The notes under the pieces were generated by a model. The model worked only from the letters and a program-made list of their open reading frames with translations. It searched no databases and was not told the origin of the DNA. 56,012 nucleotides of DNA from contig JANNPG010000153.1 of NCBI GenBank assembly GCA_031399805.1, positions 1-56,012 on the forward strand, read 5' to 3'. Origin of the DNA: Betaproteobacteria bacterium (GTDB lineage Bacteria; Pseudomonadota; Gammaproteobacteria; Burkholderiales; SG8-41). A program made the translations under genes and the position numbers. The first letter of the stretch is position 1; every line of letters begins with the position of its first letter. Positions 31,656 to 48,591 of this stretch are shown one piece after another.

Positions 31656-31671
31656 TGGCATGGAATCTGCA
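31656..31671 (+). promoter_or_regulatory. Sigma-54 (-24/-12) promoter of the Rieske oxygenase / ABC / folD operon
   Basis: TGGCATG-gaat-CTGCA fits TGGCACG-N4-TTGCW. It lies about 50 nt upstream of ATG 31721. Confidence 0.7.
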
Positions 31672-31720: not shown

Positions 31721-32929
31721 ATGTCGAAGAACGCCAGTCAGTGGCATCAGCAGCCCAAGTTTCCCCCCTCGCATTTCGTCGACAGTCGCATTTATACCGA
31801 TGAGCAACTGTTTCACGAGGAGCGCGAAAAGATTTTCAATAAATGCTGGATAATCGCGTGCCACGAATCAGAAGTTCCCGCAGCATTCGATTACCGTACG
31901 TTCTATCACCCCGGCGGCACGCCGCTTATCATGGTGCGCGGCGAAGACATGCGGGTGCGCAGTTTTTATAACGTCTGTCCGCACCGGGGTAACACGCTGC
32001 TCTACGACCCGGTCGGCAACGCCAAGCGCATCACGTGCATCTTTCACGCCTGGTCGTTCGACACCCAGGGCAACTGCACCGATATTTCGCGTGAAGAGCA
32101 GGGTTTCCAGAAGCGGTTTTGCAAAGCGGATACCGGATTGCGCGAAGTGCGCACGGAGGTCGGGTTCGGCGGATTCGTGTGGGTGAATATTGACGACAAT
32201 GCGTGCACGCTCGGCGAATATCTCGGTGACTCGCTTGATATGCTGCATGACAACATGTCGATGCCGCTCGAAGTGTTCCACTATCACAGGGCGATCGTCG
32301 ATACCAATTACAAGCTGTGGCACGATACCAACAGCGAGTTCTACCACGATTACATGCATTACTTTAACCGCGTGACAGGCATGCTCCAGGCGGGCTATTT
32401 CGACCGCAAATACACTGGTTATCCGAACGGACACGCGTCCGTCGGTTCAATGGAGATCAAATACGACGCGTATGAAGGCAGTCAAAAACGCGGCGTTGGC
32501 TGGCCGGGGCTTGCGCCCGGAGGCTGGATTTTGATCGATATTTTTCCGGGTATGACTTATAACCTGCGCACTTCGGTATTGCGCATGGATACATCAATAC
32601 CGCTCGGGCCAAACAAGCTGCTCATAGAATTTCGCGGCTTGGGGTTGAAGAGCGATACGCCGGAGCAGCGCGCGGAGCGCATTCGTGATCACAACATGAT
32701 CTGGGGTCCGTTCGGGCGTAACCTGCACGAAGACCTGCTGGGTGTGCATGGGCAGGGACGCGCGATGCACCCGGGCGGCGAGTTGACCTGGGTGATACAC
32801 GGTCGTGAAGAAAACATGACGATACACGACGAGGGCGGTATGCGGCATTTCTACGCCGAATGGGGTCGTCGCATGGGACGCAAGGCGTACGATCCGTACG
32901 GCGAGCGCAAGATAACCGCAGCAGCCTGA
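31721..32929 (+). CDS. Rieske non-heme-iron oxygenase, large (alpha) subunit
   Basis: Rieske motif CPHRGNTLLYDPVGNAKRITCIFHAW (CXH-X17-CXXH). Mononuclear iron motif WHDTNSEFYHDYMH. Confidence 0.9.
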   Translation: MSKNASQWHQQPKFPPSHFVDSRIYTDEQLFHEEREKIFNKCWIIACHESEVPAAFDYRTFYHPGGTPLIMVRGEDMRVRSFYNVCPHRGNTLLYDPVGNAKRITCIFHAWSFDTQGNCTDISREEQGFQKRFCKADTGLREVRTEVGFGGFVWVNIDDNACTLGEYLGDSLDMLHDNMSMPLEVFHYHRAIVDTNYKLWHDTNSEFYHDYMHYFNRVTGMLQAGYFDRKYTGYPNGHASVGSMEIKYDAYEGSQKRGVGWPGLAPGGWILIDIFPGMTYNLRTSVLRMDTSIPLGPNKLLIEFRGLGLKSDTPEQRAERIRDHNMIWGPFGRNLHEDLLGVHGQGRAMHPGGELTWVIHGREENMTIHDEGGMRHFYAEWGRRMGRKAYDPYGERKITAAA

Positions 32930-32989
32930 ACCGTAATTCCTGTCGCACGCCCGCTCGAATCGAGCGGGCGTGCGCGGAGGAGAGTGCCT

Positions 32990-33454
32990 ATGCAGCCCGA
33001 CAGAACGGCAATTGAAGAACTGGTGTATCGGTCGTGCCTTGCCCTGGACGAGAAAAACTTCAAGGGCTATCTCGACTTGTGCGAGACGGAGTTCCAATAC
33101 CGCATAACGGCGCACAGCCCGGAAATCCGCAAGGATATGACCTGGCTCGAACATGACAAACCAGGCATGCAGCTGCTATTTACCAATCTGCCGCGCCACA
33201 ACAGCGATCATTCGCCGCTGACGCGCCACGCCACCGTTTACACGGTTGAAGTCGATGCGGCACAGCATCAAGCGACCGTGGTGTCGGCGCTGCAGGTGTT
33301 CAAAACCGATCTCGATGGCGGCGCCACTGAGTTGTTTGCGGTCGGACGCTATGTCGATACGGTAACCATCAACGCGGGCGCGCCCAAGCTCCTCAAACGG
33401 GTGGTGAAGCTCGATACCCGGCAGTTCGGAATCGGTTATCACATTCCGTTCTGA
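32990..33454 (+). CDS. Ring-hydroxylating-oxygenase small (beta) subunit (NTF2/SnoaL-like fold)
   Basis: About 155 aa, with an EELVYRSCLALDEKNFKGYLDL N-terminus typical of beta subunits. GGAGGAG ribosome-binding site before ATG 32990. Confidence 0.8.
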   Translation: MQPDRTAIEELVYRSCLALDEKNFKGYLDLCETEFQYRITAHSPEIRKDMTWLEHDKPGMQLLFTNLPRHNSDHSPLTRHATVYTVEVDAAQHQATVVSALQVFKTDLDGGATELFAVGRYVDTVTINAGAPKLLKRVVKLDTRQFGIGYHIPF

Positions 33455-33466
33455 ATCGACCGCCTA

Positions 33467-34507
33467 ATGCGAATTCAGGTCAGCGCACGCAATCGCGCCT
33501 TTCAGTTCGACACCACGCCGGGTGTGAGTGTGCTGTATGCCGGTCTTGCGGCAGGCATACACCTGCCCTATGAGTGCGGCACCGGCACCTGCGGCACCTG
33601 CAAAGCCCGGTTGATCGCGGGTGAAGTGGAGGATGCGTGGCCGCAGGCCGCCGGCCGCAAAAATCTCAAGCAGCCGGGTGAATTGCTGATGTGCCAGTGT
33701 GTGGCCAAGAGCGACTGTACGCTGGAGGTGGCCAGCTTCGTCTACAACATGGATGCGGGCGCTTGCAGGCCGGCGTTTGGGCGCGGCACGGTCACGAACG
33801 CAAAGGCATTGGCGCCCGACGTGACGGGCTTCTCGCTCGAGCTCGACGCGCCCTGCGACTTCGATGCCGGCCAATTCGTGGTGATGCAGGTGCCGGGCGT
33901 CAAGGGGTATCGCGGCTATTCCATGGTGAATTTCGAGCGCGCCGCGCGCCGACTAGATTTCGTGGTCAAGAAAAAACCGGGCGGCGGGGCTTCCGAGTGG
34001 TTATTCGGCGGCGCGATAGAGGGACGCGAGGTCGATTGGTTCGGGCCGCTTGGCGCGGCGACGTTTTATCCCACGCTTGGCAAGAACATTTTGTGCATCG
34101 CCGGCGGCAGCGGCATCGCGGGCATGCTGTCGATTTTGTCGCGGGCGCGTCAGGAACATTATTTCGACCAGTACAGCGGCCACGTGTTTTTTGGCGTGCG
34201 CACCTATGCTGATGCGTTTTATCTTGACGAATTGGCTCAACTCGCAAGCCAGTTTCCGGACAACCTGCGGGCCACCGTCGCATTCTCGGATGAAGAAGTG
34301 CCGCCGGAGGCGCGGGCTGCGCACCCCGCGCTTACCTTCGACAAGGGGCTGGTACACGAAGTCGCGGCGAAACACATGCACGGCAAGTACCAAAACCTGC
34401 GCGCCTATCTGGCAGGGCCGCCCCCCGCGGTCGATGGCGCCATTCGCATGTTGTTGCTGCAGGCCAAGCTTACCGCGGATAATATCCGCTACGACAAGTT
34501 TAGTTGA
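33467..34507 (+). CDS. Oxygenase reductase: plant-type [2Fe-2S] ferredoxin domain plus FAD/NAD(P)H ferredoxin-reductase domain
   Basis: CGTGTCGTCKARL...C cluster motif, RGYSMVN flavin motif, and CIAGGSGIAGM NAD motif. Confidence 0.88.
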   Translation: MRIQVSARNRAFQFDTTPGVSVLYAGLAAGIHLPYECGTGTCGTCKARLIAGEVEDAWPQAAGRKNLKQPGELLMCQCVAKSDCTLEVASFVYNMDAGACRPAFGRGTVTNAKALAPDVTGFSLELDAPCDFDAGQFVVMQVPGVKGYRGYSMVNFERAARRLDFVVKKKPGGGASEWLFGGAIEGREVDWFGPLGAATFYPTLGKNILCIAGGSGIAGMLSILSRARQEHYFDQYSGHVFFGVRTYADAFYLDELAQLASQFPDNLRATVAFSDEEVPPEARAAHPALTFDKGLVHEVAAKHMHGKYQNLRAYLAGPPPAVDGAIRMLLLQAKLTADNIRYDKFS

Positions 34508-35241
34508 TGAGCATGAGCAAAACATTCGTCTGTCCGCGCAGCCACGTTCCGGCCAACGGTATGGTCGAGTGCGCGGTGGAAGGCGGGTTGAAGCTGCTGG
34601 TGGCGAACACCGGCAGCGAATATTTCGCCTACCAGGCCATGTGCCCGCATCAGGATGTGGCGCTGTGCGAAGGCCTGTATGACGGGGCGGTGCTGACTTG
34701 CCATCAGCACCTGTGGCAGTGGGACATACGCACGGGGGCAGCGATCGGGCTTGCGGAAGCGCCGCTGGAAAGCTTTCCGGTGCAGGTCGAAGGGGACTCC
34801 ATCTACGTCGTCGCGCAAAGTGCGCTCAGCGCGGCGGAACTGTTCGTCGGCATTTCAGGTCAGACGCTGAAGGGCTTAACGGACTTGGCGAAAAAAGAGG
34901 AATTCGACGCCGGCCGCGCACTTTATGACGTCGGCGATCCGGCCGACGATTTCTTCATTCTCGAATCGGGGCGGGTCGAATTCCTGATCGGCCGTGATGA
35001 GCGGGTAAGTCCGGCGGGTTTCATGCTGCGCAAGGGCGAAGTGTTCGGCTGGGCGGCGCTCCTGGACAACCAGCCGCGGCGGATTGCACGCGCGACCTGT
35101 CTGGAGCGCTCCCAGGTGTTGCACATCAACGGCAAGGAGGCACTGCGGGTGCTGGAAGGCGATCCAGCGTCGGGATACGTCGTCATGCGCCGCTTGTCGT
35201 CGCTAATCGCGCGCTATCTGGTATCGTCTGGATCAAAGTAG
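34507..35241 (+). CDS. Fusion protein: Rieske-type [2Fe-2S] ferredoxin (N-terminal) plus an atypical cyclic-nucleotide-binding-like (CNB) domain (C-terminal)
   Basis: Rieske motif CPHQDVALCEGLYDGAVLTCHQH (CXH-X16-CXXH). CNB beta-roll DDFFILESGRVEFLIG...GEVFGWAALLDNQPRRIARATC. TGATG overlap with the reductase stop codon. Confidence 0.85.
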   Translation: MSMSKTFVCPRSHVPANGMVECAVEGGLKLLVANTGSEYFAYQAMCPHQDVALCEGLYDGAVLTCHQHLWQWDIRTGAAIGLAEAPLESFPVQVEGDSIYVVAQSALSAAELFVGISGQTLKGLTDLAKKEEFDAGRALYDVGDPADDFFILESGRVEFLIGRDERVSPAGFMLRKGEVFGWAALLDNQPRRIARATCLERSQVLHINGKEALRVLEGDPASGYVVMRRLSSLIARYLVSSGSK

Positions 35242-35333
35242 GGCACGGGCCGAGTCAGGCAGAGTAACAGCAGCAACCGGGATTTCGAATATTTACCGGC
35301 GGGGAAAAGTTGTTAATCACACAGGAGGATGTC

Positions 35334-36458
35334 ATGCACGCAATAAAACGCTTCATGCAGGTGTTCGCGGTAATTTCCATGCTTGCAGTTATGACGGGGC
35401 AGGGCTGGGCGTCCGATATCGATTTTGGAAAGCCGGGTCAGCCTGTCGAACTGGTAATCGGCTATCAGCCGTATTACACCGAGTCGTGGTCCGGCGTAGT
35501 GATGCGCGGCAAGAAATTTTACGAGAAATATCTGCCTAAAGGCTCGAAAGTCGAATTTCAGGTGGGCCTGCAGGGCGCGATTATCGTCAACAACATGCTC
35601 GCGGGAAAACAGCATATCGGCTACATGGGCGATATGCCGGCTATAGTCTCGACCACGAAGACCGAAACCGCTGACATTCGAATTGTCGCCACCCTGGGCC
35701 TCGGTTTCGACCAGTGCAATATTTTCCTTGCACGCAATGACGCGCCCAAGTTCGCCAATGCCAAGGAAGCGCTGAAGTGGCTGGACGGCAAGCAGGTTGC
35801 GGTTCCGAAAGGCAGCTGCACCGACCGGTTTGCGCAGGCGACGTTCAAGAAGGAAGGCGTGCAGCCCAAAGACTACCTCAATCAGAACATTGAGGTTATC
35901 ACCAGTAATTTCCGTGCGAGCAAGATCGACGCGGCGGTAATCTGGGAACCCACCGCTTCGCGTCTGGTACAGGAAGGACTGGCGCGTCGCATCGCATCCG
36001 GCGCCAGCGTCGATGAAGGCGACGGCGGCTTTCTTGCGATGCGCGCAGATTTGATCAAGCAACGGCCGGACGTGGTCAAGGCCTGGCTGAATGCCGAACT
36101 CGACGCGCAGTTATTCCTCGCCGACGAAAAGAATTCGACCGAGGTAATCAAGATGGCGAAGGAGCAGACCACCGGTTTCTCCGAACGCGCGCTGTGGTAT
36201 TCACTCTATGGCACCTATAGCGCTGAAACCGGGGGCACCAAGACACGCATTAATCTGCACTACACGATTACGCCCCAGGCGCGTGATCTGATCGCGAAAG
36301 CCACCACTTTCCTGCACTCGATCAAAAGCATCAACGTTGCAAAGTTGCGCCCGGAGGCGGTGATGGCGGAGTTTACCGAACAAGTGCTGAAGGAACGTAA
36401 CCTCAAGGCACCGATCGGCGATGTACTCGCATTGCCTGACGCACAGGCACCCAAGTAA
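35334..36458 (+). CDS. ABC transporter periplasmic substrate-binding protein (NitT/TauT, NMT1-like family)
   Basis: Signal peptide ...MTGQGWA. The family call rests on overall resemblance to sulfonate/nitrate/taurine binding proteins and on the adjacent SsuC/TauC-type permeases. GGAGG ribosome-binding site. Confidence 0.8.
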   Translation: MHAIKRFMQVFAVISMLAVMTGQGWASDIDFGKPGQPVELVIGYQPYYTESWSGVVMRGKKFYEKYLPKGSKVEFQVGLQGAIIVNNMLAGKQHIGYMGDMPAIVSTTKTETADIRIVATLGLGFDQCNIFLARNDAPKFANAKEALKWLDGKQVAVPKGSCTDRFAQATFKKEGVQPKDYLNQNIEVITSNFRASKIDAAVIWEPTASRLVQEGLARRIASGASVDEGDGGFLAMRADLIKQRPDVVKAWLNAELDAQLFLADEKNSTEVIKMAKEQTTGFSERALWYSLYGTYSAETGGTKTRINLHYTITPQARDLIAKATTFLHSIKSINVAKLRPEAVMAEFTEQVLKERNLKAPIGDVLALPDAQAPK

Positions 36459-36464
36459 CGGCCC

Positions 36465-36495
36465 ATAAGCCTGCCCGGATCCCGGGCGGGCTTAT
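36465..36495 (+). promoter_or_regulatory. 14-bp hairpin (one mismatch) just after the binding-protein gene; possible intra-operon attenuator or mRNA stabiliser
   Basis: ATAAGCCTGCCCGG-at-CCCGGGCGGGCTTAT; no T-run. Confidence 0.45.
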
Positions 36496-36544
36496 GCTGC
36501 CCGGGAAAATTAATGTGTAAAATTTTGGCGAAAAACGACCAACG

Positions 36545-37894
36545 ATGATGGAAGCGGTACAGAACACCGGCGCGCCAACGGCGGTTACGCCGGACATATT
36601 CCGGCGGACAATGCCGTTCCAGGTCGTCTCGGACGACCTGTTGGGCAAAATCGCCCTGCTCGGCAAACGCGTCTCCTACGCGAAAGATGCGGTGATTTAC
36701 AACGTAGGCGACGCCGCCGATGACATCTTCATCATCGTATCCGGACAGGTCGAGCACGCGCTCGAGCCGGGGGCGCAGGCGCGTCGCCCGGTCAAGATAC
36801 TGGGTCCCGGCGACGTTTTCGGGTGGGCGGCACTGCTTGAGAGTTATCCGCACCGTCTGGCGAAGGCCGTGTGCCATGATCCCACTCAGATCATTCGCGT
36901 TAACGGGGACAAGCTGCTGCGTTTACTGGAATCCGACCCCGACGCCGGCGACGTGGTCATGAGCCGGTTCGCAACCATGATCACCCGCGATTACACGGTG
37001 CCCGACCTGATCGCCCAGTTGCGCCAGATTCACCATAATATTCATGCCGGTGATATACAGGGCATGAATCTCACACTGTTCCGGTTCCGCCAGTGGATCA
37101 AGAGTCCGCGACCCTACCTGATGGTGATCGGTTTCGCATTATTTCTGGGATTCTGGTATCTGTCGGTGGAGGTCTGGAAACTGCCGCGGTTCCGGGATAT
37201 GCCCGGCATCACGGTGGTGGTCAAGGAGTGGCTTAACCCCGATCCGGCGTTTGGTTTGTCGATTTACACGGCGGAGTACTACACGCATATCTGGGTGAGC
37301 ATCTGGCGCGTGACGCAGGCGTTTTTTCTGGCCACCGTGCTCGGCGTGTCGGTGGGCTTGCTGCTCGGCTGGTCGAAGCAATTCAAGGAATATGTGTTCC
37401 CGGTATTTGAAACGCTGCGCCCGATTCCGATTCTCGCGTGGGTGCCGCTGGCAATCGTGATGTTCGTTGCCACCGAATCAGCGGTGATTTACCTTACCTT
37501 TCTCGCCTCGTTTTTCGCGACCGCGCTGAATACCATGCTTGGAGTCGAGTCCATTGAGGAGTCCTATGTGCGTGCGGCGTACTGCTTGGGGGCCAAGCGT
37601 TCGCAGGTGTTTCGTCACGTTATTGTGCCCGGTGCGCTTCCATTCATATTTACCGGCCTGCAGATTTCGGTCGGAGTTTCATGGTTTTCGCTGGTCGCGG
37701 CGGAAATGGTGTCCGGCCAGTACGGCCTGGGTTACGTCATTAACACTTCCTATACGATGGTGCGCTACCCGACGATCGTTATAGGCATGATCACACTCGG
37801 TTTTGTCGGCTATGTTACAAGTGCCATGGTGCGCGTTCTGGGTGATCATCTAATGCAGTGGCGCACGCGCGAACTCGCGCTGGGTGGACAATGA
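36545..37894 (+). CDS. Fusion protein: atypical CNB domain (N-terminal, about 150 aa) plus an ABC permease (BPD_transp_1, SsuC/TauC/NrtB-like)
   Basis: CNB domain DDIFIIVSGQVEH...GDVFGWAALLESYPHRLAKAVC. Then six predicted transmembrane segments with the EAA loop ESYVRAAYCLGAKRSQVFRHVIVPGALP. Confidence 0.85.
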   Translation: MMEAVQNTGAPTAVTPDIFRRTMPFQVVSDDLLGKIALLGKRVSYAKDAVIYNVGDAADDIFIIVSGQVEHALEPGAQARRPVKILGPGDVFGWAALLESYPHRLAKAVCHDPTQIIRVNGDKLLRLLESDPDAGDVVMSRFATMITRDYTVPDLIAQLRQIHHNIHAGDIQGMNLTLFRFRQWIKSPRPYLMVIGFALFLGFWYLSVEVWKLPRFRDMPGITVVVKEWLNPDPAFGLSIYTAEYYTHIWVSIWRVTQAFFLATVLGVSVGLLLGWSKQFKEYVFPVFETLRPIPILAWVPLAIVMFVATESAVIYLTFLASFFATALNTMLGVESIEESYVRAAYCLGAKRSQVFRHVIVPGALPFIFTGLQISVGVSWFSLVAAEMVSGQYGLGYVINTSYTMVRYPTIVIGMITLGFVGYVTSAMVRVLGDHLMQWRTRELALGGQ

Positions 37895-38754
37895 CGTCCG
37901 CGGTGCCGCAGCTGGCGCAAAGCGCGCGTGCGATCACGCGCGGGGCAATTAGCATAGAAGACGTGGTCAAGATTTACGATCCGGATGGTGCTGCGGTAAT
38001 GGCGGTCGACCATTGCTCGCTCGACATCAGCGCCGGCGAAATCTGCATGATTGTCGGGCCGTCCGGTTGCGGCAAGACAACGTTGCTCAACGCAATCGCG
38101 GGTTTTCACGCGATCACGTCGGGCCGCATACTCCTGGATGGCGAAGTACTGTGCAGCGCGGAGAAGCCGAAGGCCGAACCGGGCTCGGATCGCATCGTCG
38201 TGTTTCAGAACGGCGCCTTGTTCCCGTGGAAAACCAACCTCGAAAACGTCGCATTCGGTCCGGTTATGCAGGGAACCATGAGCCGTGCCGAGGCGAACGA
38301 AAAGGCTCTGGGCATGATGGCCGACGCCGGTCTGGCGGGCGTCGAACACAATTTCCCCGGCGAGGTCTCGTCCGGCACCCGTCGACGCGTCGAGATCGTG
38401 CGCGCGTTGATGAATAATCCGAAGGTATTGTTGCTCGATGAGCCGTATCGCGCGCTCGATTCGCTGACCAAATCGGTAATGCACGAAGCGCTGCTCGAAA
38501 TCTATTACAAGAACAAGGTCACGATTTTTTTCATCACCCACGATCTGGAAGAAGCAATTTTTCTCGGCCACAAGGTCGCGATCATGACGACGCGCCCGTG
38601 CAAGCCGAAAAAGATCCTTGACGTGGATATTCCGCACCCGCGTGACTATAGCGCGCTCACCTCGAAGCGATTTCGTGAATTGATGGAAGAAACCAACGAG
38701 GCGGTGCACGAAGAAGCACTCAAGGCGTTTGCCGCCGGCGAAAAGGAGGGTTAG
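37891..38754 (+). CDS. ABC ATPase 1 (degenerate signature motif)
   Basis: Walker A GPSGCGKTT, Q-loop VFQNGALFPW, Walker B LLLDEP, and H-loop ITHD. The signature reads VSSGTRRR instead of LSGGQ/M. ATGA overlap with the permease. Confidence 0.88.
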   Translation: MTSAVPQLAQSARAITRGAISIEDVVKIYDPDGAAVMAVDHCSLDISAGEICMIVGPSGCGKTTLLNAIAGFHAITSGRILLDGEVLCSAEKPKAEPGSDRIVVFQNGALFPWKTNLENVAFGPVMQGTMSRAEANEKALGMMADAGLAGVEHNFPGEVSSGTRRRVEIVRALMNNPKVLLLDEPYRALDSLTKSVMHEALLEIYYKNKVTIFFITHDLEEAIFLGHKVAIMTTRPCKPKKILDVDIPHPRDYSALTSKRFRELMEETNEAVHEEALKAFAAGEKEG

Positions 38755-38757
38755 ACC

Positions 38758-39633
38758 GTGCCCGCGCGCAAGCCTGCTTTCATAAATTCGACGTACTGGC
38801 GCGGCGCCATCTCGATTCTCGTGTTTCTTGCGCTGTGGCAGATCGGCTCGTTGTCCAAGGTCTGGATCAAGTGGGAGGCCTTTGAATGGTTGCGCTACAT
38901 GCTTACGGCGTCGGGGTTCAAGCCGGTGTATCTGCCGTGGATAGGCGCGGTGCCGGCACCGACCGAAGTGCTGCATGCCTGGCTCGGCGTTATCAATGAT
39001 CCCGGTTATTGGCAAAGCTGGTATATGAGCTTCTTTCGCGTAATGTCTGGATTTATCGCGGCGATGCTGATCGGCATACCCTTCGGGCTGATGCTTGCGG
39101 TAAGCCGCACGGCATTCGGCATCGGATTTCCGGTATTCGAGGTGCTGCGTCCGATTCCTCCGCTGGCGTGGGTGCCGGCATCGATAATTTTCTGGCCGAC
39201 CCAGGAGTTGTCGATTGCGTTCGTGACATTTCTGGGCGCGTTTTACACGATCGTCATTAACGTCGTGGGCGGTGCGCGCTCGATCGACCTGCGCTATTTC
39301 CATGCGGCGCGCTCGATGGGATCAAGTCAATGGGACATATTCTGGCGCATTACCCTGCCTGGCACGCTGCCGTCCATCATGATCGGGTCGGCGGTCGGCA
39401 TGGGCATCACGTGGGAAGTCGTCGTGGCAGCCGAAATGATTTCGGGGGGAGGCAGCCAGATCGGCGGGACCAGTGGCGGCGGACTCGGTTTTTTCATCTG
39501 GAATTCGTATATCGGCGGCTCGTACGAGCAAATCGTGGTCGGCATGATAAGCATCGGCATTGCGGGATTCGTGTCCAGCGAACTGCTGCGCGCGCTCGGC
39601 AAGCGGGTAACACCGTGGCTGCAACTCAGATGA
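38758..39633 (+). CDS. ABC permease 2 (SsuC/TauC-like)
   Basis: EAA loop RYFHAARSMGSSQWDIFWRITLPGTLP and multiple transmembrane segments. Confidence 0.88.
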   Translation: MPARKPAFINSTYWRGAISILVFLALWQIGSLSKVWIKWEAFEWLRYMLTASGFKPVYLPWIGAVPAPTEVLHAWLGVINDPGYWQSWYMSFFRVMSGFIAAMLIGIPFGLMLAVSRTAFGIGFPVFEVLRPIPPLAWVPASIIFWPTQELSIAFVTFLGAFYTIVINVVGGARSIDLRYFHAARSMGSSQWDIFWRITLPGTLPSIMIGSAVGMGITWEVVVAAEMISGGGSQIGGTSGGGLGFFIWNSYIGGSYEQIVVGMISIGIAGFVSSELLRALGKRVTPWLQLR

Positions 39634-39649
39634 TGCGCCGGCGGCGGAT

Positions 39650-40516
39650 ATGAGTGTAGCGGTGCGCAACGCGATGGAATCGGGCGAAATCGTGGCGAGC
39701 CACGTCAGCAAGAGCTATGGTGCCGCGCATTTCAGTAAAGACGTGGTCAAGGATTGTTCGTTCATCATCGAGCGCAGCAAGTTGACGGTGATGATCGGCC
39801 CTTCCGGCTGCGGCAAGAGCACTTTGATCAGGCTGCTCGCGGGATTCGAGATGCCGACCAGCGGTAATCTCACGCTTAACGGCGAGCCGATTACGGCACC
39901 GGGGCGTGACCGGCTGGTGCTGTTCCAGGAAACCGCGCTGTTTCCGTGGATGACGACTTACGACAACATACTCTACGGTCCGCGCGCGCGCGGCGAGGTT
40001 ACCCCGGAGACGCTGGAGCTTGCCGAATTCCTGCTCAATAAAGTGGGGTTGCAGGAGTTCCGGAAAAAATACCCGACCCAGCTGTCGGGCGGCATGCAGC
40101 GCCGCGCCGAACTCGCACGCGCGATGATCAATAATCCAGCGGTGATGATACTCGACGAGCCGTTTCGCGGACTCGATGCGATGACCAAGGAGCTGATGTG
40201 GGAGTATTACTCGGCGCTTTATGAAGAAAACCGCAGCACCAATTTCTTTGTGACCACGGACATTGACGAGGCGATATTCCTGGCGGACCGGTTACTGATC
40301 ATGTCCAATATCCCGACTCAGGTGCGCGCGGTGCTCGAAGTCGATGTCCCGCGCCCGCGTAAGCTGGCCGACCTGATCGAGAACGACCGTTCGAACGAGA
40401 TCAAGATGGAGGCATTGTCGATCCTGCATGACGAGGCAATGAAATCATTTTCCCGCGGCAGTAAAGCGGCCGCCGATTTCGTTGACGCCTACTCGAAACG
40501 CGTCACAAAAACCTAG
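39650..40516 (+). CDS. ABC ATPase 2 (canonical signature, degenerate H-loop)
   Basis: Walker A GPSGCGKST, signature LSGGMQRR, and Walker B MILDEP. The switch histidine is replaced (FFVTTDIDEA). Confidence 0.88.
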   Translation: MSVAVRNAMESGEIVASHVSKSYGAAHFSKDVVKDCSFIIERSKLTVMIGPSGCGKSTLIRLLAGFEMPTSGNLTLNGEPITAPGRDRLVLFQETALFPWMTTYDNILYGPRARGEVTPETLELAEFLLNKVGLQEFRKKYPTQLSGGMQRRAELARAMINNPAVMILDEPFRGLDAMTKELMWEYYSALYEENRSTNFFVTTDIDEAIFLADRLLIMSNIPTQVRAVLEVDVPRPRKLADLIENDRSNEIKMEALSILHDEAMKSFSRGSKAAADFVDAYSKRVTKT

Positions 40517-40749: not shown

Positions 40750-41634
40750 GTGTCCGCAAAGGTCATCGACGGCAACGCAGTTGCGCGCCACGTCAGAAGC
40801 GTGTGGAAGACGCGTGTGGATGTGCTCAAGGCGCGAGGCGTCACGCCGGGGCTTGCCGTCATCATTGTTGGCGACAGTCCGGCATCCCGCATCTATGTGC
40901 GCAACAAGGTCAAGGCATGCGGGGAGGTCGGGCTGCATTCGGAAACTCATGAGTTTCCCGCCAATGCGGCGGAACCGATGATCATCACCCGTATCGAGGA
41001 ACTCAACCGGAACCCGAAGATTCACGGCATTCTGGTACAACTGCCGCTGCCGCCACAGCTTGAGACGCGGCGTCTGCTCGGCGCGATTTCGATTGAAAAA
41101 GATGTCGATGGTTTCCACCTATACAACGTCGGCGGCCTGGTGGTAGGGGAGAACAACATCTTTCCGCCGTGCACGCCGTATGGAGTGCAATGCCTGCTCG
41201 AGTACGAGAAGATTCCGATCGAGGGGCAGAACGTCGTCGTGGTCGGCGCCAGCAACATCGTCGGCAAGCCGATGGCGCTGATGCTGATGGCCAAGGATGC
41301 AACCGTGAGCATCTGCCATATCAAGACGCGTGATCTCGCGCAGTACACGATACTGGCCGATATCCTGATCGTAGCGGCCGGCTGTCCCGGCCTTATCACG
41401 GCGCCGATGGTCAAGCGCGGCGCGGTAGTCATCGATGTCGGCATCAACCGGCTGCCCAATGGCACGCTCGCTGGAGACGTTGATTTCGCCGGCGTGAAGG
41501 ACAAGGCGTCTTACATCACGCCGGTGCCGGGCGGTGTCGGGCCAATGACAGTCACCATGCTCATATGCAATACTGTCGCCGCCGCCGAACGAGCCGTCGG
41601 CCGGAATGCTGAAAAAACTCCCGCATCCGCCTGA
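40750..41634 (+). CDS. folD: Bifunctional methylene-THF dehydrogenase/methenyl-THF cyclohydrolase, copy 1
   Basis: PASRIYVRNKVKAC, HGILVQLPLP, DVDGFH, and TPVPGGVGPMTV. Confidence 0.92.
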   Translation: MSAKVIDGNAVARHVRSVWKTRVDVLKARGVTPGLAVIIVGDSPASRIYVRNKVKACGEVGLHSETHEFPANAAEPMIITRIEELNRNPKIHGILVQLPLPPQLETRRLLGAISIEKDVDGFHLYNVGGLVVGENNIFPPCTPYGVQCLLEYEKIPIEGQNVVVVGASNIVGKPMALMLMAKDATVSICHIKTRDLAQYTILADILIVAAGCPGLITAPMVKRGAVVIDVGINRLPNGTLAGDVDFAGVKDKASYITPVPGGVGPMTVTMLICNTVAAAERAVGRNAEKTPASA

Positions 41635-41649
41635 TTCCAGTCATTGAAT

Positions 41650-42507
41650 ATGGCCGCGACCCTGCTTGACGGAGCGGCCATAGCCCGGCAGGTTTACTCG
41701 GGGCTCAGGCAACGCATCGGATCGCTACGCGCCGGTGGTGTCCGGCCCGGACTGGCTGCACTGCTGATCGGAGACAATCCGGCGTCACGGATATACGTCA
41801 GGAACAAAGTTCACGCTTGCAGCGAGGTTGGCGTCTACTCGGAAGTGCACCCACTCGCGGCAGATTGCACGGAGGAAGAGGTGCTTGCCACCGTGCGGCG
41901 CCTGAATGCAGATTCCGCAATTCACGGCATACTCGTACAGCTCCCGCTGCCCGCGCAGTTGCGCCCGGAGCGTGTACTGCAAGCCATTGCGCCCGCCAAG
42001 GATGTCGATGGCTTCAACTGGCTGAACCTTGGCGCGATGATTGCCGGGCATCCCCTGCTTGCGCCGTGCACGCCGCTGGGCGTGATGGCCATGCTCGATC
42101 ACGCCGGTGTTGCGATCGAAGGCCGCAGCGCAGTCGTAGTCGGGCGCAGCGCCATCGTCGGCAAGCCGCTTGCAATGATGCTGATCGCGCGTGGCGCAAC
42201 CGTAAGCGTGTGCCATTCGAAAACGGTCGACCTGCGGCAGTACACCCTGATGGCGGATATTCTGGTTATCGCGGTCGGCAGGCCCGGTCTGGTCGACGGC
42301 AGTATGATCAAACCGGGCGCAGTGGTAATCGATGTAGGTATCAACCGCATGTCCAGCGGCAAGCTGGCGGGTGATGTCGATTTTGCGTCCGGCAGCCTGA
42401 TTGCATCGAAAATTACGCCGGTGCCCGGCGGCGTTGGACCAATGACGGTTGCGATGCTGATTGCAAACACCGTGACCGCCGCCGAGCGCAGCGTCGGCGG
42501 CGGCTGA
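41650..42507 (+). CDS. folD: Bifunctional methylene-THF dehydrogenase/methenyl-THF cyclohydrolase, copy 2 (tandem paralog)
   Basis: Same motif set (PASRIYVRNKVHAC, HGILVQLPLP, DVDGFN, TPVPGGVGPMTV), but clearly diverged from copy 1. Confidence 0.92.
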   Translation: MAATLLDGAAIARQVYSGLRQRIGSLRAGGVRPGLAALLIGDNPASRIYVRNKVHACSEVGVYSEVHPLAADCTEEEVLATVRRLNADSAIHGILVQLPLPAQLRPERVLQAIAPAKDVDGFNWLNLGAMIAGHPLLAPCTPLGVMAMLDHAGVAIEGRSAVVVGRSAIVGKPLAMMLIARGATVSVCHSKTVDLRQYTLMADILVIAVGRPGLVDGSMIKPGAVVIDVGINRMSSGKLAGDVDFASGSLIASKITPVPGGVGPMTVAMLIANTVTAAERSVGGG

Positions 42508-42512
42508 AATAA

Positions 42513-43571
42513 TCAGCGCGCGTGGCGCGGCAGAAACCTGCCCGGGTCGTAAAATGGCAGCCGCGCGACATGCGCGCGCGTGCGGTCTGCAAGCATGACC
42601 GCGGATCCGGGGTATGCGTCGTCGGCATTGACGAAACCGATGCCAAGCTTGCGCCCGAACACGGGCGACCAGCAAACGCTGGTCAGCATTGCGTTGCCGG
42701 GCGCCAGGTGTTCCGGCAAGCGTGTTGCCAGGACGGAATGATTCTGCGGCAGCAATCCTGTCAAACGGCGCTGCAGCGGCCGCCAGCGGAGACTACGCAA
42801 CGCCCGTGCGCCGCGAAAATCATGGCCATGAAAATCGACCATCCGCGCCAGACCCAGCTCCAGCGGCGTTACCGGCGCGGCGAGTTCACGCATGAATAGC
42901 CAGTGGCCAGCCTCTATGCGCAGTGAATCGACCGCGTCAAAACCGCATTCCAGCAATCCGCTCTCTGCGCCGGCGTCGCACAGTGCCTGCCACAGTGCTT
43001 CGGCCGCGGCATCCGCAAGCACGAATTCATAACCCATTTCGCCGCTATAGCCGATGCGCGCAAGCCAGCAGTCGCGGTCCGCGAATTTAAGCCGCTCGAA
43101 GCCGTAGTAGGGCAGCGCGACCTGCTGCGGTGCAAAGCAGCGCTCGATAATGCGCCGGCTCGCCGGGCCTTGCAGCGCAATGACTGCATGCTGCCGCGAG
43201 ATGTCGGTCACGGTCACATTAAACTCGCGGGCGCTTTGCGCAACAGGCTCGAAATCGGCGCGCCTGCCGACGAACAGCCAGTAGTGCTCGCTGTTCAGAC
43301 GCCACACTGTCGCGTCATTCAGCACCGTGCCGTCGTCGCGCAGCAGCAACGTATAGGCGATACGCCCGGCCGGCAAGCCGTCGAGCGCGCGCGTTTGCAG
43401 TGCCTGCAGGAAAGCAGCACTCGCGGGCCCCGTAATTTCGGCGCAGCACATGAATGAAAAATCGAACAGGCCGGCCGACCGGCGCGTGGCCAGATGTTCG
43501 TGCTGCGGGTCGCTGAAGTAACGCGGCGTCGGGATGCCCGGCGCTACCGTCAGGGTTGCGGGGCAGCGCAT
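42513..43571 (-). CDS. GcvT-family folate-binding aminomethyltransferase-like protein
   Basis: RRSAGLFDFSFMCCAEITGPASAAFLQALQTRALDGLPAGRIAYTLLLRDDGTVLNDATVWRL resembles the GcvT N-terminal fold. I chose start ATG 43571 because it lies downstream of the TauE stop. Confidence 0.8.
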   Translation of the reverse strand: MRCPATLTVAPGIPTPRYFSDPQHEHLATRRSAGLFDFSFMCCAEITGPASAAFLQALQTRALDGLPAGRIAYTLLLRDDGTVLNDATVWRLNSEHYWLFVGRRADFEPVAQSAREFNVTVTDISRQHAVIALQGPASRRIIERCFAPQQVALPYYGFERLKFADRDCWLARIGYSGEMGYEFVLADAAAEALWQALCDAGAESGLLECGFDAVDSLRIEAGHWLFMRELAAPVTPLELGLARMVDFHGHDFRGARALRSLRWRPLQRRLTGLLPQNHSVLATRLPEHLAPGNAMLTSVCWSPVFGRKLGIGFVNADDAYPGSAVMLADRTRAHVARLPFYDPGRFLPRHAR

Positions 43572-43597
43572 GCTTAGAAACCTGGCCAGCGCCGTTG

Positions 43598-44335
43598 TCA
43601 CTTGAACCATCCGAGTTCGTGCCCTATCAGCGCGAATCCAACCGCAATGCATAGCACGGCGACGAATTTGCGCAACAGATCGGCGTTCACCGCATGCACG
43701 ATGCGCGCGCCAAGCACGACGCCCAGAATTTCAAGCAGGGTGACCGTGGCGGCAACGCTGAAATCGATCGTGCCATACTTGAGGTTGCCGAACGTGCCGG
43801 ATACCGCAGCGACGATCTGGATGACCTGGCTCGTACCGATCGAGGTCAGAGCCGGAAATCCGCACAGCACCATCAGCGGTACGGACAGCGCAGGGCCGCC
43901 GACACCCGTCAGTCCGGACCCGAACCCGGCAATTGCGCCCAGGGCGAGTAACAGCATGCTTTGCGCGTGCCTGCGCCCGGCAAACGCGGGTTGTGGTATG
44001 CCGTGCCACTTTGCCATGGTATAGACGCCGGCGAAAATAATGACGGCTGCGAGCAGGATTGCAAGGGCGCCGGGCCCAGTCAGCGAATTGACCCACGCGC
44101 CGATAAACGCAAAAAAAACGGCGCCCAGCAAAACCGGCTGCGTAACGGACCAGTCGATGCTGCCGCGCCGCTGGAACATGAGGGTGCCGGTGACACCGGT
44201 AAATGCGAATGTAAAAAGCGCGGTCGCCATCGCGACGTGGATTGACAGGCCGGCAAATGCGGTTAATGCCGGAATCAGCAGGATGCCACCAATGCCGACC
44301 GCGCCAATCAGCGTGCCGACGCCAAAGGCGCTCAC
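43598..44335 (-). CDS. TauE/SafE-family sulfite/organosulfonate exporter
   Basis: Eight predicted transmembrane segments with duplicated G-rich motifs (GAVGIGGILLIPAL and GLTGVGGPALSVPL). The start is uncertain: GTG 44335, or a CTG 24 nt upstream. Confidence 0.8.
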   Translation of the reverse strand: MSAFGVGTLIGAVGIGGILLIPALTAFAGLSIHVAMATALFTFAFTGVTGTLMFQRRGSIDWSVTQPVLLGAVFFAFIGAWVNSLTGPGALAILLAAVIIFAGVYTMAKWHGIPQPAFAGRRHAQSMLLLALGAIAGFGSGLTGVGGPALSVPLMVLCGFPALTSIGTSQVIQIVAAVSGTFGNLKYGTIDFSVAATVTLLEILGVVLGARIVHAVNADLLRKFVAVLCIAVGFALIGHELGWFK

Positions 44336-44380
44336 CAGCAGCCATGCGAGATCAGTCAGGCCGGTCTCCGGAAATAATCA

Positions 44381-44400
44381 GGGGCATGCTGGCATGCCCC
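44381..44400. promoter_or_regulatory. Perfect 8-bp GC-rich hairpin inside the operon, between the CNB and TauE genes
   Basis: GGGGCATG-ctgg-CATGCCCC. Confidence 0.35.
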
Positions 44401-44431
44401 GGTGTCGGTTTGCGCATGATCCCGCCGGCGG

Positions 44432-44896
44432 TCAGCCCGACGCAAACGCGGTCAGGTTGCCGGTGATCAGAATATTGAGCTGTTTCATCAAGCGAAAGCC
44501 GAGACTGTGATCGGCTTCCATCAACAGCAACAGCTGATCACCGTTGATGGCGAATACCGAACAAGGCGTAAGGCAGACCGCGGACGCAATGCGCGTGGGC
44601 GCCTGCTCGACGAGCGCGGCCCAGCCGAAAACCTCGCCGCATTGCAGTATCTGGCCGGCCGCGGTGCGTCGGCTGCCGAGCCCGATGCTGAACCGCACCA
44701 TGCCGTCGACCAGAACGTAGCAGTCGACCGCCACATCGCCGATATTGTAAATCTGGCTGTCCTGGCGATAACTGTCGATGCGACCCAGCGCCGCGATGCG
44801 TTCATGCTGCGCCGGCGCAAGCCCGGCGAAAAAACCGGCGCCGCCCACAATGTCGGCGTGTGTCGGGACGATGCCCGCGGCGGCCGGTTGCGTCAC
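44432..44896 (-). CDS. Stand-alone atypical CNB-domain protein (154 aa, no DNA-binding domain)
   Basis: VDCYVLVDGMVRFSIG...GEVFGWAALVEQAPTRIASAVC. GTGA overlap with the upstream PanB-like gene. Confidence 0.8.
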   Translation of the reverse strand: MTQPAAAGIVPTHADIVGGAGFFAGLAPAQHERIAALGRIDSYRQDSQIYNIGDVAVDCYVLVDGMVRFSIGLGSRRTAAGQILQCGEVFGWAALVEQAPTRIASAVCLTPCSVFAINGDQLLLLMEADHSLGFRLMKQLNILITGNLTAFASG

Positions 44897-45762
44897 TTCT
44901 TCCAGCCCACCTTGTCCTTGAATTTCTTGAGTTCGTCTTCTTTCATGTACACCGTGTGTTCCTTGCCTGGATAGATGCGCTTCCTGACTTCATCGCGATA
45001 GTCGGTGAGACCTTTCTCGATGATAGGCACGAGGTCGCAATAGATCTTGGAATGGCGCGGTGTGTGTTTCTCGTAGAGATGGAAGAGATCGGAGCCGATG
45101 ATATGCACACCGTCCGAGGTATTGCCCGAGCCCAGGCTTACCACCGGTACCGGCAGAGTCTCAGCAAGAAACTGCGACACTTCGGAGGTCACCACCTCGG
45201 TCATGATGGAGAAACATCCGGCATCGACAAACGCCCATGCGTCATCCACCAGTTCTTTGGCGCGGTCGGCGGTCTTGCCCTGCGCTGCGAAGCCGCCGAG
45301 TTGCGGAATGCGCATCGGGCAGATGCCGATGTGCCCCTGCACGGGAATACCTGCCTTGACGATGGCTTCGATGTATTTCGCGTGATGTTGGTTGCCCTCG
45401 CACTTCATGACTTCGGCGCCGGCCTGCGACACGTACTTGGCCGCATTGTCGACGGATTGCTGCGCTGAGAGGTGAAAGCTCATGTAGGGCATATCAACCA
45501 TGCGCAGTCCGTACTGCGACCCGCGCTTGACCGCCTGCGCCATGAACAGCACCTCTTCAAACGAGACGGAAGTGGTCGATTCGTGACCGAACAACACCAT
45601 ACCGCCGGTGTCGGACACGCACAGGATATCGATGCCCACGCGGTCGGCGACAATCGCGGTTTCGTAGTCATAGACGGCGAGTTGCACGATGGGTTCGCCT
45701 TTTTTCTTCTTTTCCATCAGCATCGGGATAGTTACCTTTTTACGCGCTGCTTGTTCGGCCAT
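44893..45762 (-). CDS. PanB-family (3-methyl-2-oxobutanoate hydroxymethyltransferase-like) methylene-THF-dependent enzyme
   Basis: KVTIPMLMEKKKKGEPIVQLAVYDYETAIVADRVGIDILCVSDTGGMVLFGHESTT and GHIGICPM are typical of the PanB TIM barrel. AAGGAGG ribosome-binding site before ATG 45762. Confidence 0.8.
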   Translation of the reverse strand: MAEQAARKKVTIPMLMEKKKKGEPIVQLAVYDYETAIVADRVGIDILCVSDTGGMVLFGHESTTSVSFEEVLFMAQAVKRGSQYGLRMVDMPYMSFHLSAQQSVDNAAKYVSQAGAEVMKCEGNQHHAKYIEAIVKAGIPVQGHIGICPMRIPQLGGFAAQGKTADRAKELVDDAWAFVDAGCFSIMTEVVTSEVSQFLAETLPVPVVSLGSGNTSDGVHIIGSDLFHLYEKHTPRHSKIYCDLVPIIEKGLTDYRDEVRKRIYPGKEHTVYMKEDELKKFKDKVGWKK

Positions 45763-45814
45763 GGCCGCCTCCTTGGTGGTTAACTCTTGAGATCGCAAAG
45801 TTTAAAAAACGTAA

Positions 45815-45829
45815 GCAAGCCTTATGCCA
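45815..45829 (-). promoter_or_regulatory. Sigma-54 (-24/-12) promoter of the PanB-like / CNB / TauE / GcvT-like operon
   Basis: The minus strand reads TGGCATA-aggc-TTGCT. It lies about 53 nt upstream of ATG 45762. Confidence 0.7.
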
Positions 45830-48422: not shown

Positions 48423-48456
48423 GACGGCAATGAGGCGGCTTTTAGCACGCGAACAT

Positions 48457-48591
48457 CTAGCACGAGAACATATTGGCATACCCGATCAGGAAGTCGGGAT
48501 TCAGGTAGGCCTTGAAACTCAGATAGCTCACGTAGGCGAGCAGCGTCGCCAATATCAGCCACACGAGCGGGCGGTGGGTTTGCCTGATCAT
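48457..48591 (-). CDS. 44-aa single-transmembrane protein translationally coupled to the MFS gene; possible MFS small subunit
   Basis: It is not in the ORF track because it is shorter than 60 aa. ATG 48591 overlaps the MFS TGA stop (ATGA). The sequence is MIRQTHRPLVWLILATLLAYVSYLSFKAYLNPDFLIGYANMFSC. Confidence 0.5.
   Translation of the reverse strand: MIRQTHRPLVWLILATLLAYVSYLSFKAYLNPDFLIGYANMFSC

Follow-up and report, generated by a model that had tools for sequence, protein, structure and literature searches.

The contig JANNPG010000153.1 of a betaproteobacterial genome assembly (GCA_031399805.1) is analysed here over its positions 1 to 56,012, hereafter the window, whose numbering is used for all coordinates. 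It encodes three copies of a domain with the cyclic-nucleotide-binding (CNB) fold: one at the C-terminus of a Rieske ferredoxin, one at the N-terminus of an ABC importer permease, and one as a free-standing protein. By their sequences, the three are ancient paralogues of one dedicated CNB-fold clade of gene clusters of the msm type, named after methanesulfonate (MSA) monooxygenase, and in this clade the glutamate that binds the ribose of a cyclic nucleotide is replaced by tryptophan. The CNB domains lack a helix-turn-helix (HTH) and are not transcription factors. We give an even chance to the reading, drawn from sequence comparison, that they are sensors of a small anion of the pathway and not of cyclic nucleotides, and that they would act after translation on the ferredoxin, on the importer and possibly on sulfite export. 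The genes and domains concerned are:

34504-35241, plus strand: Rieske ferredoxin-CNB gene, 245 residues, MsmC-like; uninterrupted open reading frame (ORF) with matches to PF00355 and PF00027
34516-34815, plus strand: Rieske [2Fe-2S] ferredoxin domain, residues ~5-104; PF00355 at residues 7-91, E 2.9e-12
34819-35232, plus strand: CNB domain 1, C-terminal on the ferredoxin, residues ~106-243; PF00027, 54.3 bits; domain hidden Markov model (HMM) at residues 106-243
36545-37894, plus strand: CNB-permease gene, 449 residues, MsmF/TauC/SsuC-type permease of a NitT/TauT importer; PF00027 at residues 43-131, PF00528 at residues 267-436
36593-37000, plus strand: CNB domain 2, N-terminal on the permease, residues ~17-152; PF00027, 54.6 bits
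44432-44896, minus strand: free-standing CNB protein, 154 residues, ORF; PF00027, 49.7 bits

Fold and cassette of the three CNB domains

That the three domains have the CNB fold is supported by Pfam and by structure prediction. All three match PF00027 (cNMP_binding) with E-values of ~1e-13 to 1e-14 and at roughly double its gathering score of 27.5 bits, and an HMM built from the three domains recovered exactly three CNB domains when run against all ORFs of the window in six frames. Their mutual identity is ~35% with 31 invariant columns, and their identity to canonical CNB domains is only ~22%. AlphaFold2 (AF2) models of the free-standing protein (pLDDT 79.8; beta strands followed by helices at residues 119-128 and 130-153) and of the ferredoxin fusion (pLDDT 78.6; two domains and a long C-terminal helix at residues 221-242) both show the beta-roll and the long C-helix of the fold. 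Foldseek matched the CNB parts best to CRP-family proteins and PKG, at a probability of 1.00 and a TM-score of 0.7, and also to channel CNB domains. A preliminary description, made from the letters of the stretch alone, had recognised the three paralogous domains, had noted that they carry no HTH and had proposed that they be examined by HMM and structure prediction; the results above agree with it, and the Pfam scan found no match to an HTH family in any of the three CNB ORFs, which end at the C-helix or run into the membrane domain.

The phosphate-binding cassettes, each found verbatim, read GEVFGWAALLDNQPRRIARATC in the ferredoxin (residues 178-199, nt 35035-35100, with W183 and R193), GDVFGWAALLESYPHRLAKAVC in the permease (residues 89-110, nt 36809-36874) and GEVFGWAALVEQAPTRIASAVC in the free-standing protein (residues 87-108, nt 44573-44638, with W92 and R102). 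The pattern common to the three is G-W-A-A-L…R-[IL]-A, compared with G-E-L…R-S-A in E. coli CAP. When aligned to CAP, which needs no gaps, residues G71, E72, R82, S83 and A84 correspond to Gly, Trp, Arg, Ile or Leu, and Ala; the length and spacing of the cassette are the same, and its Gly, Arg and Ala are kept. In CAP, cAMP is bound by E72 (ribose 2'-OH), R82-S83 (phosphate) and T127-S128 of the C-helix (base) (PMC10187061). Four of these five residues (E72, S83, T127 and S128) are replaced in the window domains, and the Arg alone survives. The positions of T127-S128 are taken by Y-L, D-Y and N-L and differ between the classes, as judged from a gapless extension of the CAP alignment that is approximate in that helix.

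Across orthologues, the cassette Arg is invariant and is followed by Ile, Leu or Val, never by Ser or Thr. The earlier claim that Glu is replaced by Trp and that a hydrophobic residue follows the Arg was thus seen in all three copies and in every orthologue examined, and its further suggestion that Ile or Leu at this position is atypical stands in comparison with CAP, HCN and MlotiK1 but not with all cyclic-nucleotide binders: PKA has Ala after the cassette Arg, so that the aliphatic residue alone does not speak against binding. Epac has Gln in place of the cassette Glu.

Conservation and paralogy

Trp and Arg are 100% conserved in the 165 domains taken from gene loci (79 ferredoxin, 59 permease and 27 free-standing), and also in the alignments of 120 proteins each from three protein searches, which include a fourth class encoded beside msmD (see below). 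The Glu-to-Trp replacement is invariant across more than 500 sequences. Tyr50, Gly91, Ala93, Ala104 and Gly133 likewise vary little or not at all in any of the four class alignments; Met137 is as constant in three of them and reaches 95% in the fourth. The msmD-linked class has not conserved the acidic residue that precedes the cassette, so that a structural salt bridge does not by itself account for the Arg. Moreover, since the classes differ in their protein partners and the pocket is invariant, a shared ligand is favoured over a shared protein interface.

In neighbour-joining analysis, the ferredoxin, permease and free-standing classes were monophyletic in 98, 81 and 89 of 100 bootstraps, respectively, and the whole clade with the Gly-Trp cassette stood apart from canonical outgroups in 83. 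As each class is monophyletic, the duplications would be older than the spread of these lineages; the tree did not resolve their order. The ferredoxin-fused class is nearest to the msmD-linked class by mean identity (42%), and despite this the two were grouped in only 1 of 100 bootstraps.

When the three-domain profile was searched against 1.84 billion representative proteins, the Gly-Trp…Arg cassette marked a compact clade that consists mostly of relatives of the three classes, with some free proteins of ~145 residues and a few other architectures. One of the more distant proteins, P0296, lies in a context that is not msm, so that the Gly-Trp cassette is not exclusive to msm clusters. Gly-Trp CNB domains also occur as 3-5 tandem repeats (P0241 and P0289) and as two repeats (P0339, P0344, P0373 and P0383); some tandem arrays read LGWGAV...YTASA, without the cassette Arg, and some two-domain proteins read LGWSWL...HF. 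P0292 combines a Gly-Trp CNB domain with a 4HB_MCP module, and P0377 two CNB domains with an acyltransferase.

Association with msm-type gene clusters

A 26-residue spacer in the Rieske motif of the alpha subunit (CxH-X26-CxxH, hereafter X26) has been proposed as the hallmark of MsmA of MSA monooxygenase (PMC4433239). Look-ups of the more distant free Gly-Trp CNB proteins placed them in such classical msm clusters in all eight informative cases, from which P0275 and P0292 are excluded as their contexts are too short. Besides the reductase and the beta subunit, these clusters encode an alpha subunit of the X26 type and a Rieske ferredoxin of 110-124 residues that is not fused. The CNB gene follows msmD at a distance of 14-72 bp and in the same direction or, in the Bradyrhizobium-type layout, lies tail-to-tail with msmC. 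The clusters come from metagenome-assembled genomes (MAGs) labelled Alpha- and Gammaproteobacteria and have a single free CNB protein of ~145 residues, with ferredoxin and permease unfused.

A metagenome scan seeded with the msmD-linked class returned 80 loci, and in nearly all of them the reductase gene is followed by the CNB gene with the oxygenase alongside. Where flanks were usable, msm neighbours were present in 39 of 43 loci, the other four being contig-end fragments that keep GcvT or the binding protein. The alpha subunits in this survey have X26 spacers in 35 cases and 17-residue (X17) spacers in 11. One locus (L135) brings together a free CNB protein and a CNB-permease with an unfused ferredoxin and an alpha subunit of the X26 type. 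Judged from these neighbourhoods, msm-type clusters in general have the CNB domain as a characteristic accessory, and the betaproteobacterial fusions show which proteins it works with. We found no published description of a Rieske-CNB fusion, of a CNB-permease fusion or of a CNB gene in msm operons, and none of them is in PMC5068391. A figure legend in PMC4433239, citing Baxter 2002, names 'orfX/orfY putative regulators' of msm operons, which may be the CNB gene.

The oxygenase genes that precede the ferredoxin in the window are:

31721-32929, plus strand: oxygenase alpha subunit, Rieske CxH-X17-CxxH; ORF with domain matches
32984-33454, plus strand: oxygenase beta subunit
33467-34507, plus strand: Fer2-FAD-NAD reductase

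To these the window adds a SorA-like molybdoenzyme with its cytochrome c, the sulfite exporter TauE, two FolD proteins, a GcvT-like and a PanB-like protein. This gene set points to the utilisation of MSA, and the same neighbours flank msmABCD/EFGH in Filomicrobium (PMC4433239). In related loci, the conserved order on the plus strand is alpha, beta, reductase, ferredoxin-CNB, binding protein, CNB-permease, ATPase, permease, ATPase and FolD, and that on the opposite strand is PanB-like, free CNB, TauE and GcvT-like, often with a response regulator and a kinase. The survey of fusion architectures and their neighbourhoods that had been suggested for this DNA thus shows both fusions recurring in a conserved msm-type gene order.

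The four-component gene set, the SsuA-type importer and the sulfite and C1 neighbours of MsmABCD are all present in the window, and the Rieske spacer of its alpha subunit has the ordinary 17 residues instead of the 26 of MsmA. Compared with long-spacer clusters, the window proteins are 54-59% identical in the alpha subunit, 70% in the binding protein and 72% in the membrane part of the permease, the latter two being compared with locus L090. 'Short-spacer' proteins have been listed in Methylibium, Methyloversatilis, Ralstonia and Thiobacillus, and MSA use has been shown for none of them (PMC4433239); a long-spacer cluster of Variovorax did not support growth on MSA (PMC7143210). In the PDB, no relative of MsmA closer than generic ring-hydroxylating oxygenases was found. 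By its genes, the locus is a 'short-spacer' relative of the msm type, whose membership among the MSA monooxygenases is not established.

The Rieske ferredoxin-CNB fusion

The ferredoxin-CNB gene is the last of the alpha-beta-reductase-ferredoxin oxygenase set, and its orthologues begin at the ATG at 34513. The ligands of the Rieske cluster, C47-P-H49-X16-C66-H-Q-H69 (motif CPHQDVALCEGLYDGAVLTCHQH), are invariant in the orthologue alignment. Foldseek matched the Rieske part to T4moC (1vm9, 37% identity), TodB (3dqy) and BphF (1fqt) and CNB domain 1 to the CNB domains of Clr, GlxR and PKG, and found no single PDB chain that covers both domains of the fusion. The best 120 of 1310 database relatives are all two-domain proteins of ~242 residues, and an alignment that spans the spread of homologues shows no change in the Trp, the Arg or the four Rieske ligands.

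In a survey of one genome per species, the fusion was present in at least 140 species, from which 80 loci were kept. The loci examined are almost all labelled Betaproteobacteria; carriers include Thiobacillus denitrificans DSM 12475 and T. thioparus DSM 505. The fusion is in frame in all 80 save two that have obvious sequencing frameshifts. In the plasmid collection, only unfused Rieske ferredoxins were found. The preliminary description had held that its proposal would fall if the domain were a separate ORF in related genomes and the fusion were not conserved. The domain is indeed a separate ORF after msmD, yet the fusion is conserved in at least 80 species genomes. Taken together, a separate ORF in relatives and a conserved fusion support a functional link to the ferredoxin and do not indicate an artefact.

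Five loci (L003, L031, L049, L054 and L061) come from MAGs labelled Streptomyces, Streptomycetaceae, Anaerolineales, Rhizobium and Lysobacter. With 64-92% identity to the ferredoxin fusion of the window, these contigs look like binning or labelling errors and not transfers.

The CNB-permease fusion and its importer

The membrane part of the CNB-permease matches PF00528 (BPD_transp_1) at 85.4 bits and the NCBIfam models SaoP (153.7 bits), NtrB (140.1 bits) and TauC (135.3 bits), these three below their equivalog cut-offs, and also SsuC. CNB domain 2 is followed by a linker of ~40 residues, and by hydropathy the first hydrophobic segment begins at ~residue 190 (nt ~37112). TauC/SsuC-type permeases have their N-terminus in the cytoplasm. 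Since the N-terminus precedes the first hydrophobic segment, CNB domain 2 is predicted to be cytoplasmic.

Among the 62 loci with at least 2 kb downstream, 52 have a CNB-permease. Six loci have an orthologous permease without the CNB domain, whose membrane part is up to 91% identical and which begins at ~residue 165-170 of the fusion; the CNB domain is therefore dispensable for the permease, an accessory and not a core part. One locus (L022, 12016-13941) encodes a permease on which the CNB domain occurs twice in tandem (FGWSAL and FGWAAL), and another (L065, 4335-4997) has an extra free-standing ORF of the permease class upstream of the oxygenase genes.

The importer, at 35310-40516 on the plus strand, has one CNB-bearing permease per heterodimer and comprises, besides the CNB-permease:

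35310-36458, plus strand: SsuA-family binding protein
37858-38754, plus strand: ATPase
38758-39633, plus strand: second permease
39650-40516, plus strand: second ATPase

The ATPases are of 298 and 288 residues, with no extra domain apparent by length alone. The longest-ORF start of the first ATPase overlaps the end of the CNB-permease by 37 nt (37858-37894), and its true start is probably downstream. After the importer come tandem FolD paralogues at 40750-41634 (294 residues) and 41644-42507 (287 residues), of which many related loci have one or both.

The free-standing CNB protein and its neighbours

The gene of the free-standing CNB protein lies within a minus-strand unit at 42513-45798, together with:

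44893-45798, minus strand: PanB-like protein
43598-44335, minus strand: TauE sulfite exporter
42513-43652, minus strand: GcvT-like protein

The CNB gene starts with a GTG that shares 4 nt (44893-44896) with the stop of the PanB-like gene, and the next gene downstream of it, on the same strand, is TauE. Most loci repeat the order PanB-CNB-TauE-GcvT. The spacing of the free CNB genes to TauE, or to msmD in classical clusters, resembles that of co-transcribed genes. Where a free CNB gene was seen, TauE was adjacent in 27 of 27 loci, co-directional with and downstream of the CNB gene in 25; the other neighbour was a PanB-like gene or a response regulator.

The longest-ORF start of the GcvT-like gene overlaps the end of TauE by 55 nt (43598-43652), and its true start is probably downstream. 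At locus L076 (14465-15616, minus strand), a PanB-like and a CNB sequence share one stop-to-stop frame, as a fusion or through a sequencing frameshift. Other apparent PanB-CNB or reductase-ferredoxin fusions were rejected, as such long ORFs are mostly GC-rich read-through, and L076 alone stays a possible PanB-CNB fusion. In one public source, free CNB proteins (e.g. P0157, P0166, P0261 and P0446) are named 'toluene monooxygenase system ferredoxin subunit' though the Rieske domain is absent; this looks like an annotation transferred from the fused form.

Probable transcriptional control beside the locus

Next to the PanB-like gene, the window encodes a two-component system:

45964-47430, minus strand: sigma-54-type response regulator, ORF
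47394-48479, minus strand: histidine kinase, ORF

We take the response regulator to be a sigma-54 activator from its GESGTGKE and GAFRADLFYRL motifs. The pair adjoins PanB in loci L009, L016, L030, L033, L047, L076 and L080. Sites resembling a -24/-12 promoter are located 50 bp upstream of the alpha gene (TGGCATGGAATCTGCA, 31656-31671, plus strand) and just upstream of the PanB-like gene (TGGCATAAGGCTTGCT, 45814-45829, minus strand). A scan of the window with the sigma-54 consensus was not enriched (33 matches against 31.8 expected), and only the positions of these two sites are suggestive. Transcription of the operon is probably under this separate sigma-54 two-component system, which would fit a non-transcriptional role for the CNB domains.

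A proposed sensor of a small anion

The cassette keeps the elements that bind an anion, namely its Gly and Arg and the small residues with which the cassette helix begins, and has lost the Glu for the ribose to Trp and the Ser/Thr to Ile, Leu or Val. A site that keeps the helix N-terminus and the Arg and gains an aromatic and an aliphatic residue would suit a small, partly apolar anion like CH3-SO3-; sulfite and hydroxymethanesulfonate would also be in line with it. We argue that the domains would no longer bind cAMP or cGMP and that their ligand could be cytoplasmic MSA, sulfite or hydroxymethanesulfonate. Between MSA and sulfite, MSA would be somewhat more likely; its methyl group could pack against the Trp and the Ile/Leu with its sulfonate on the Arg.

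Ligand binding would shift the C-terminal helix, as in other CNB domains. In the permease, the C-helix continues into the linker that leads to the first membrane helix, and its movement could throttle import (trans-inhibition) or activate it. In the ferredoxin, docking with the reductase or with the hydroxylase could be permitted or blocked, such that electrons flow only when the substrate is present or the product is not accumulating; less oxygen would then be reduced in uncoupled turnover. For the free copy, we suppose an action in trans, with TauE or the oxygenase as the most plausible target. In this way, a single metabolite could govern import, oxidation and the removal of sulfite at the protein level. 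Electrons that reach a Rieske oxygenase when no substrate is there cost NADH and give rise to reactive oxygen, and such enzymes are normally controlled through transcription. A sensor placed on both the electron carrier and the importer would, if true, be a compact post-translational solution and a new class of CNB output.

Several points weigh against a sensor of this kind. The Arg and the Gly are needed by cyclic-nucleotide binders too, so that the loss of cyclic-nucleotide binding is likely but not proven. The choice among MSA, sulfite and other ligands comes from chemical reasoning about the cassette only, and the confidence of AF2 is lowest in a part of that cassette (pLDDT ~60 at residues 91-100 of the free protein). 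We know of no precedent for a fused sensor domain that regulates a ferredoxin. The link of the free copy to TauE is one of gene order only. Finally, MSA as the substrate of a short-spacer oxygenase is unproven (PMC4433239).

It is possible, and we put it forward tentatively, that the CNB family goes further and is an unrecognised fifth component of MSA monooxygenase, which would bind MSA or sulfite through its Arg and Trp and gate the ferredoxin, the importer and sulfite export. If so, one circuit, coordinated by a single metabolite, would hold the first Rieske ferredoxin gated by a ligand and the first ABC importer under CNB control. The gene after msmD may be a missing piece of msm and could explain points of regulation or activity of an enzyme of the atmospheric sulfur cycle; that the CNB gene is a fifth player in this biogeochemically relevant enzyme system is probable. 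The 154-residue protein, which is predicted to be soluble and has two invariant candidate ligand residues, offers a ready experimental handle.

Alternative explanations

The domains could instead be ligand-free modules for protein-protein contacts, which scaffold or dimerise through their C-helices and either join the ferredoxin physically with importer, hydroxylase or TauE in a 'metabolon' or simply dimerise their carriers, the Trp filling the former nucleotide pocket like the intrinsic ligand in the CNB-homology domains of KCNH channels. The bulky Trp in the pocket, the long C-terminal helix in each AF2 model (residues 130-153 and 221-242), the occurrence of three paralogues within one locus and the unpaired domain left by a single CNB-bearing permease per heterodimer are all consistent with such a role. 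However, it is the ligand cassette that is most conserved across four classes with different partners, with an invariant Arg that has no conserved acidic partner. Classical clusters have one free copy and no CNB domain on a ferredoxin or permease for it to pair with, and permease orthologues work without one. We consider a scaffold unlikely, though with a real chance of being right.

A related suggestion makes the CNB protein a fifth, stoichiometric subunit of the oxygenase with an effector or coupling role, comparable to MmoB or T4moD of the diiron monooxygenases, which electron transfer or coupling would require for its efficiency, with or without a small ligand. This would agree with the position of the free gene as the fifth of msmABCD-type operons, where it follows msmD at 14-72 bp or faces msmC tail-to-tail, with the fusion to the ferredoxin in Betaproteobacteria, and with the ferredoxin-fused class being most similar to the msmD-linked one. 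It would require the permease copy to be a secondary acquisition, and both the permease fusion and the TauE-linked copy are left unexplained; the CNB fold is typically a sensor, and active MSA monooxygenase has been described with four components only, MsmA, MsmB, MsmC and MsmD (PMC4433239). An effector subunit is thus quite improbable in our estimate.

As for ordinary cAMP or cGMP receptors, through which a second messenger such as a carbon-status signal would control the pathway, PF00027 matches above its threshold, Gly, Arg and Ala are kept with the spacing of CAP, and the nearest solved structures are cAMP-binding proteins of the CRP family. Against them stand the replacement of four of the five CAP signature residues, the Trp that is invariant in more than 500 sequences, and the tie of the clade to one catabolic gene cluster, with no spread of the kind seen in a general signalling module. 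We regard canonical receptors as a slim prospect.

That the fusions are assembly or frameshift artefacts can practically be dismissed, for although the window is a MAG contig and related clusters encode the domain as an ORF of its own, the ORFs are uninterrupted, in frame in the 80 loci save two, and two-domain in the top 120 of 1310 relatives.

Comparison with known systems

The nearest relatives in fold are the CNB domains of the CRP/FNR family (E. coli CAP, C. glutamicum GlxR and T. thermophilus CAP, 4ev0), with the same beta-roll and C-helix. The window domains differ in that they have neither an HTH nor the Thr-Ser of the C-helix, and their output is a ferredoxin, a permease or no fused partner. 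Some CRP/FNR members sense ligands other than nucleotides, namely NtcA (2-oxoglutarate), CprK (chlorophenolacetate) and CooA (haem), and all of these bind DNA. They resemble the proposed sensors in their reuse of the CNB fold for a metabolite, and the cassette Arg of NtcA binds a carboxylate, a precedent for an Arg that holds an anion other than a phosphate. To our knowledge, the Gly-Trp cassette does not occur in NtcA, CprK or CooA.

CNB domains that act in cis on a partner that does not bind DNA are represented by the mycobacterial acetyltransferase Pat and by the family 2B encapsulin shell, both of which gave weak NCBIfam matches. The ligand of Pat is cAMP, bound through a canonical cassette. 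We know of no CNB domain on an electron carrier or on an importer permease.

Among ABC importers, trans-inhibition is carried out by the C2 domain of MetN and the C-terminal domain of ModC, both at the C-terminus of the ATPase. Like these, the CNB domain of the window would be a cytoplasmic add-on of the ligand-binding type that is dispensable for transport. It is of the CNB fold and sits at the N-terminus of the permease, whereas MetN and ModC use other folds, and any inhibition by it is putative.

Like MsmC, T4moC, BphF and TodB, the N-terminal 105 residues of the fusion are a Rieske ferredoxin with the four cluster ligands; this part is structurally close to T4moC, and unfused long-spacer MsmC is 33-44% identical to it. 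Classical MsmC has 110-125 residues and no extra domain (PMC4433239), whereas the window protein adds a 140-residue sensor domain. The msmABCD/msmEFGH clusters of Methylosulfonomonas methylovora and Filomicrobium have the same gene set, with TauE, a SorAB-type sulfite dehydrogenase, and GcvT-like and PanB-like neighbours (PMC4433239), and differ in gene order, which is A-B-C-D there and A-B-D-C in the window.

The CNB fold, CNB domains on non-transcriptional partners, non-nucleotide sensors of the CRP family and regulatory add-ons of importers are therefore already known. Our literature search found no description of the cassette variant, of its strict association with msm-type clusters, of a sensor on a Rieske ferredoxin or of a CNB domain on an importer permease, and likewise none of a system in which one sensor module sits on a ferredoxin and on an importer, as the preliminary description had supposed. 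It is not a new principle that these domains would represent, but the placement of one sensor module on both an electron carrier and a transporter is fairly surprising.

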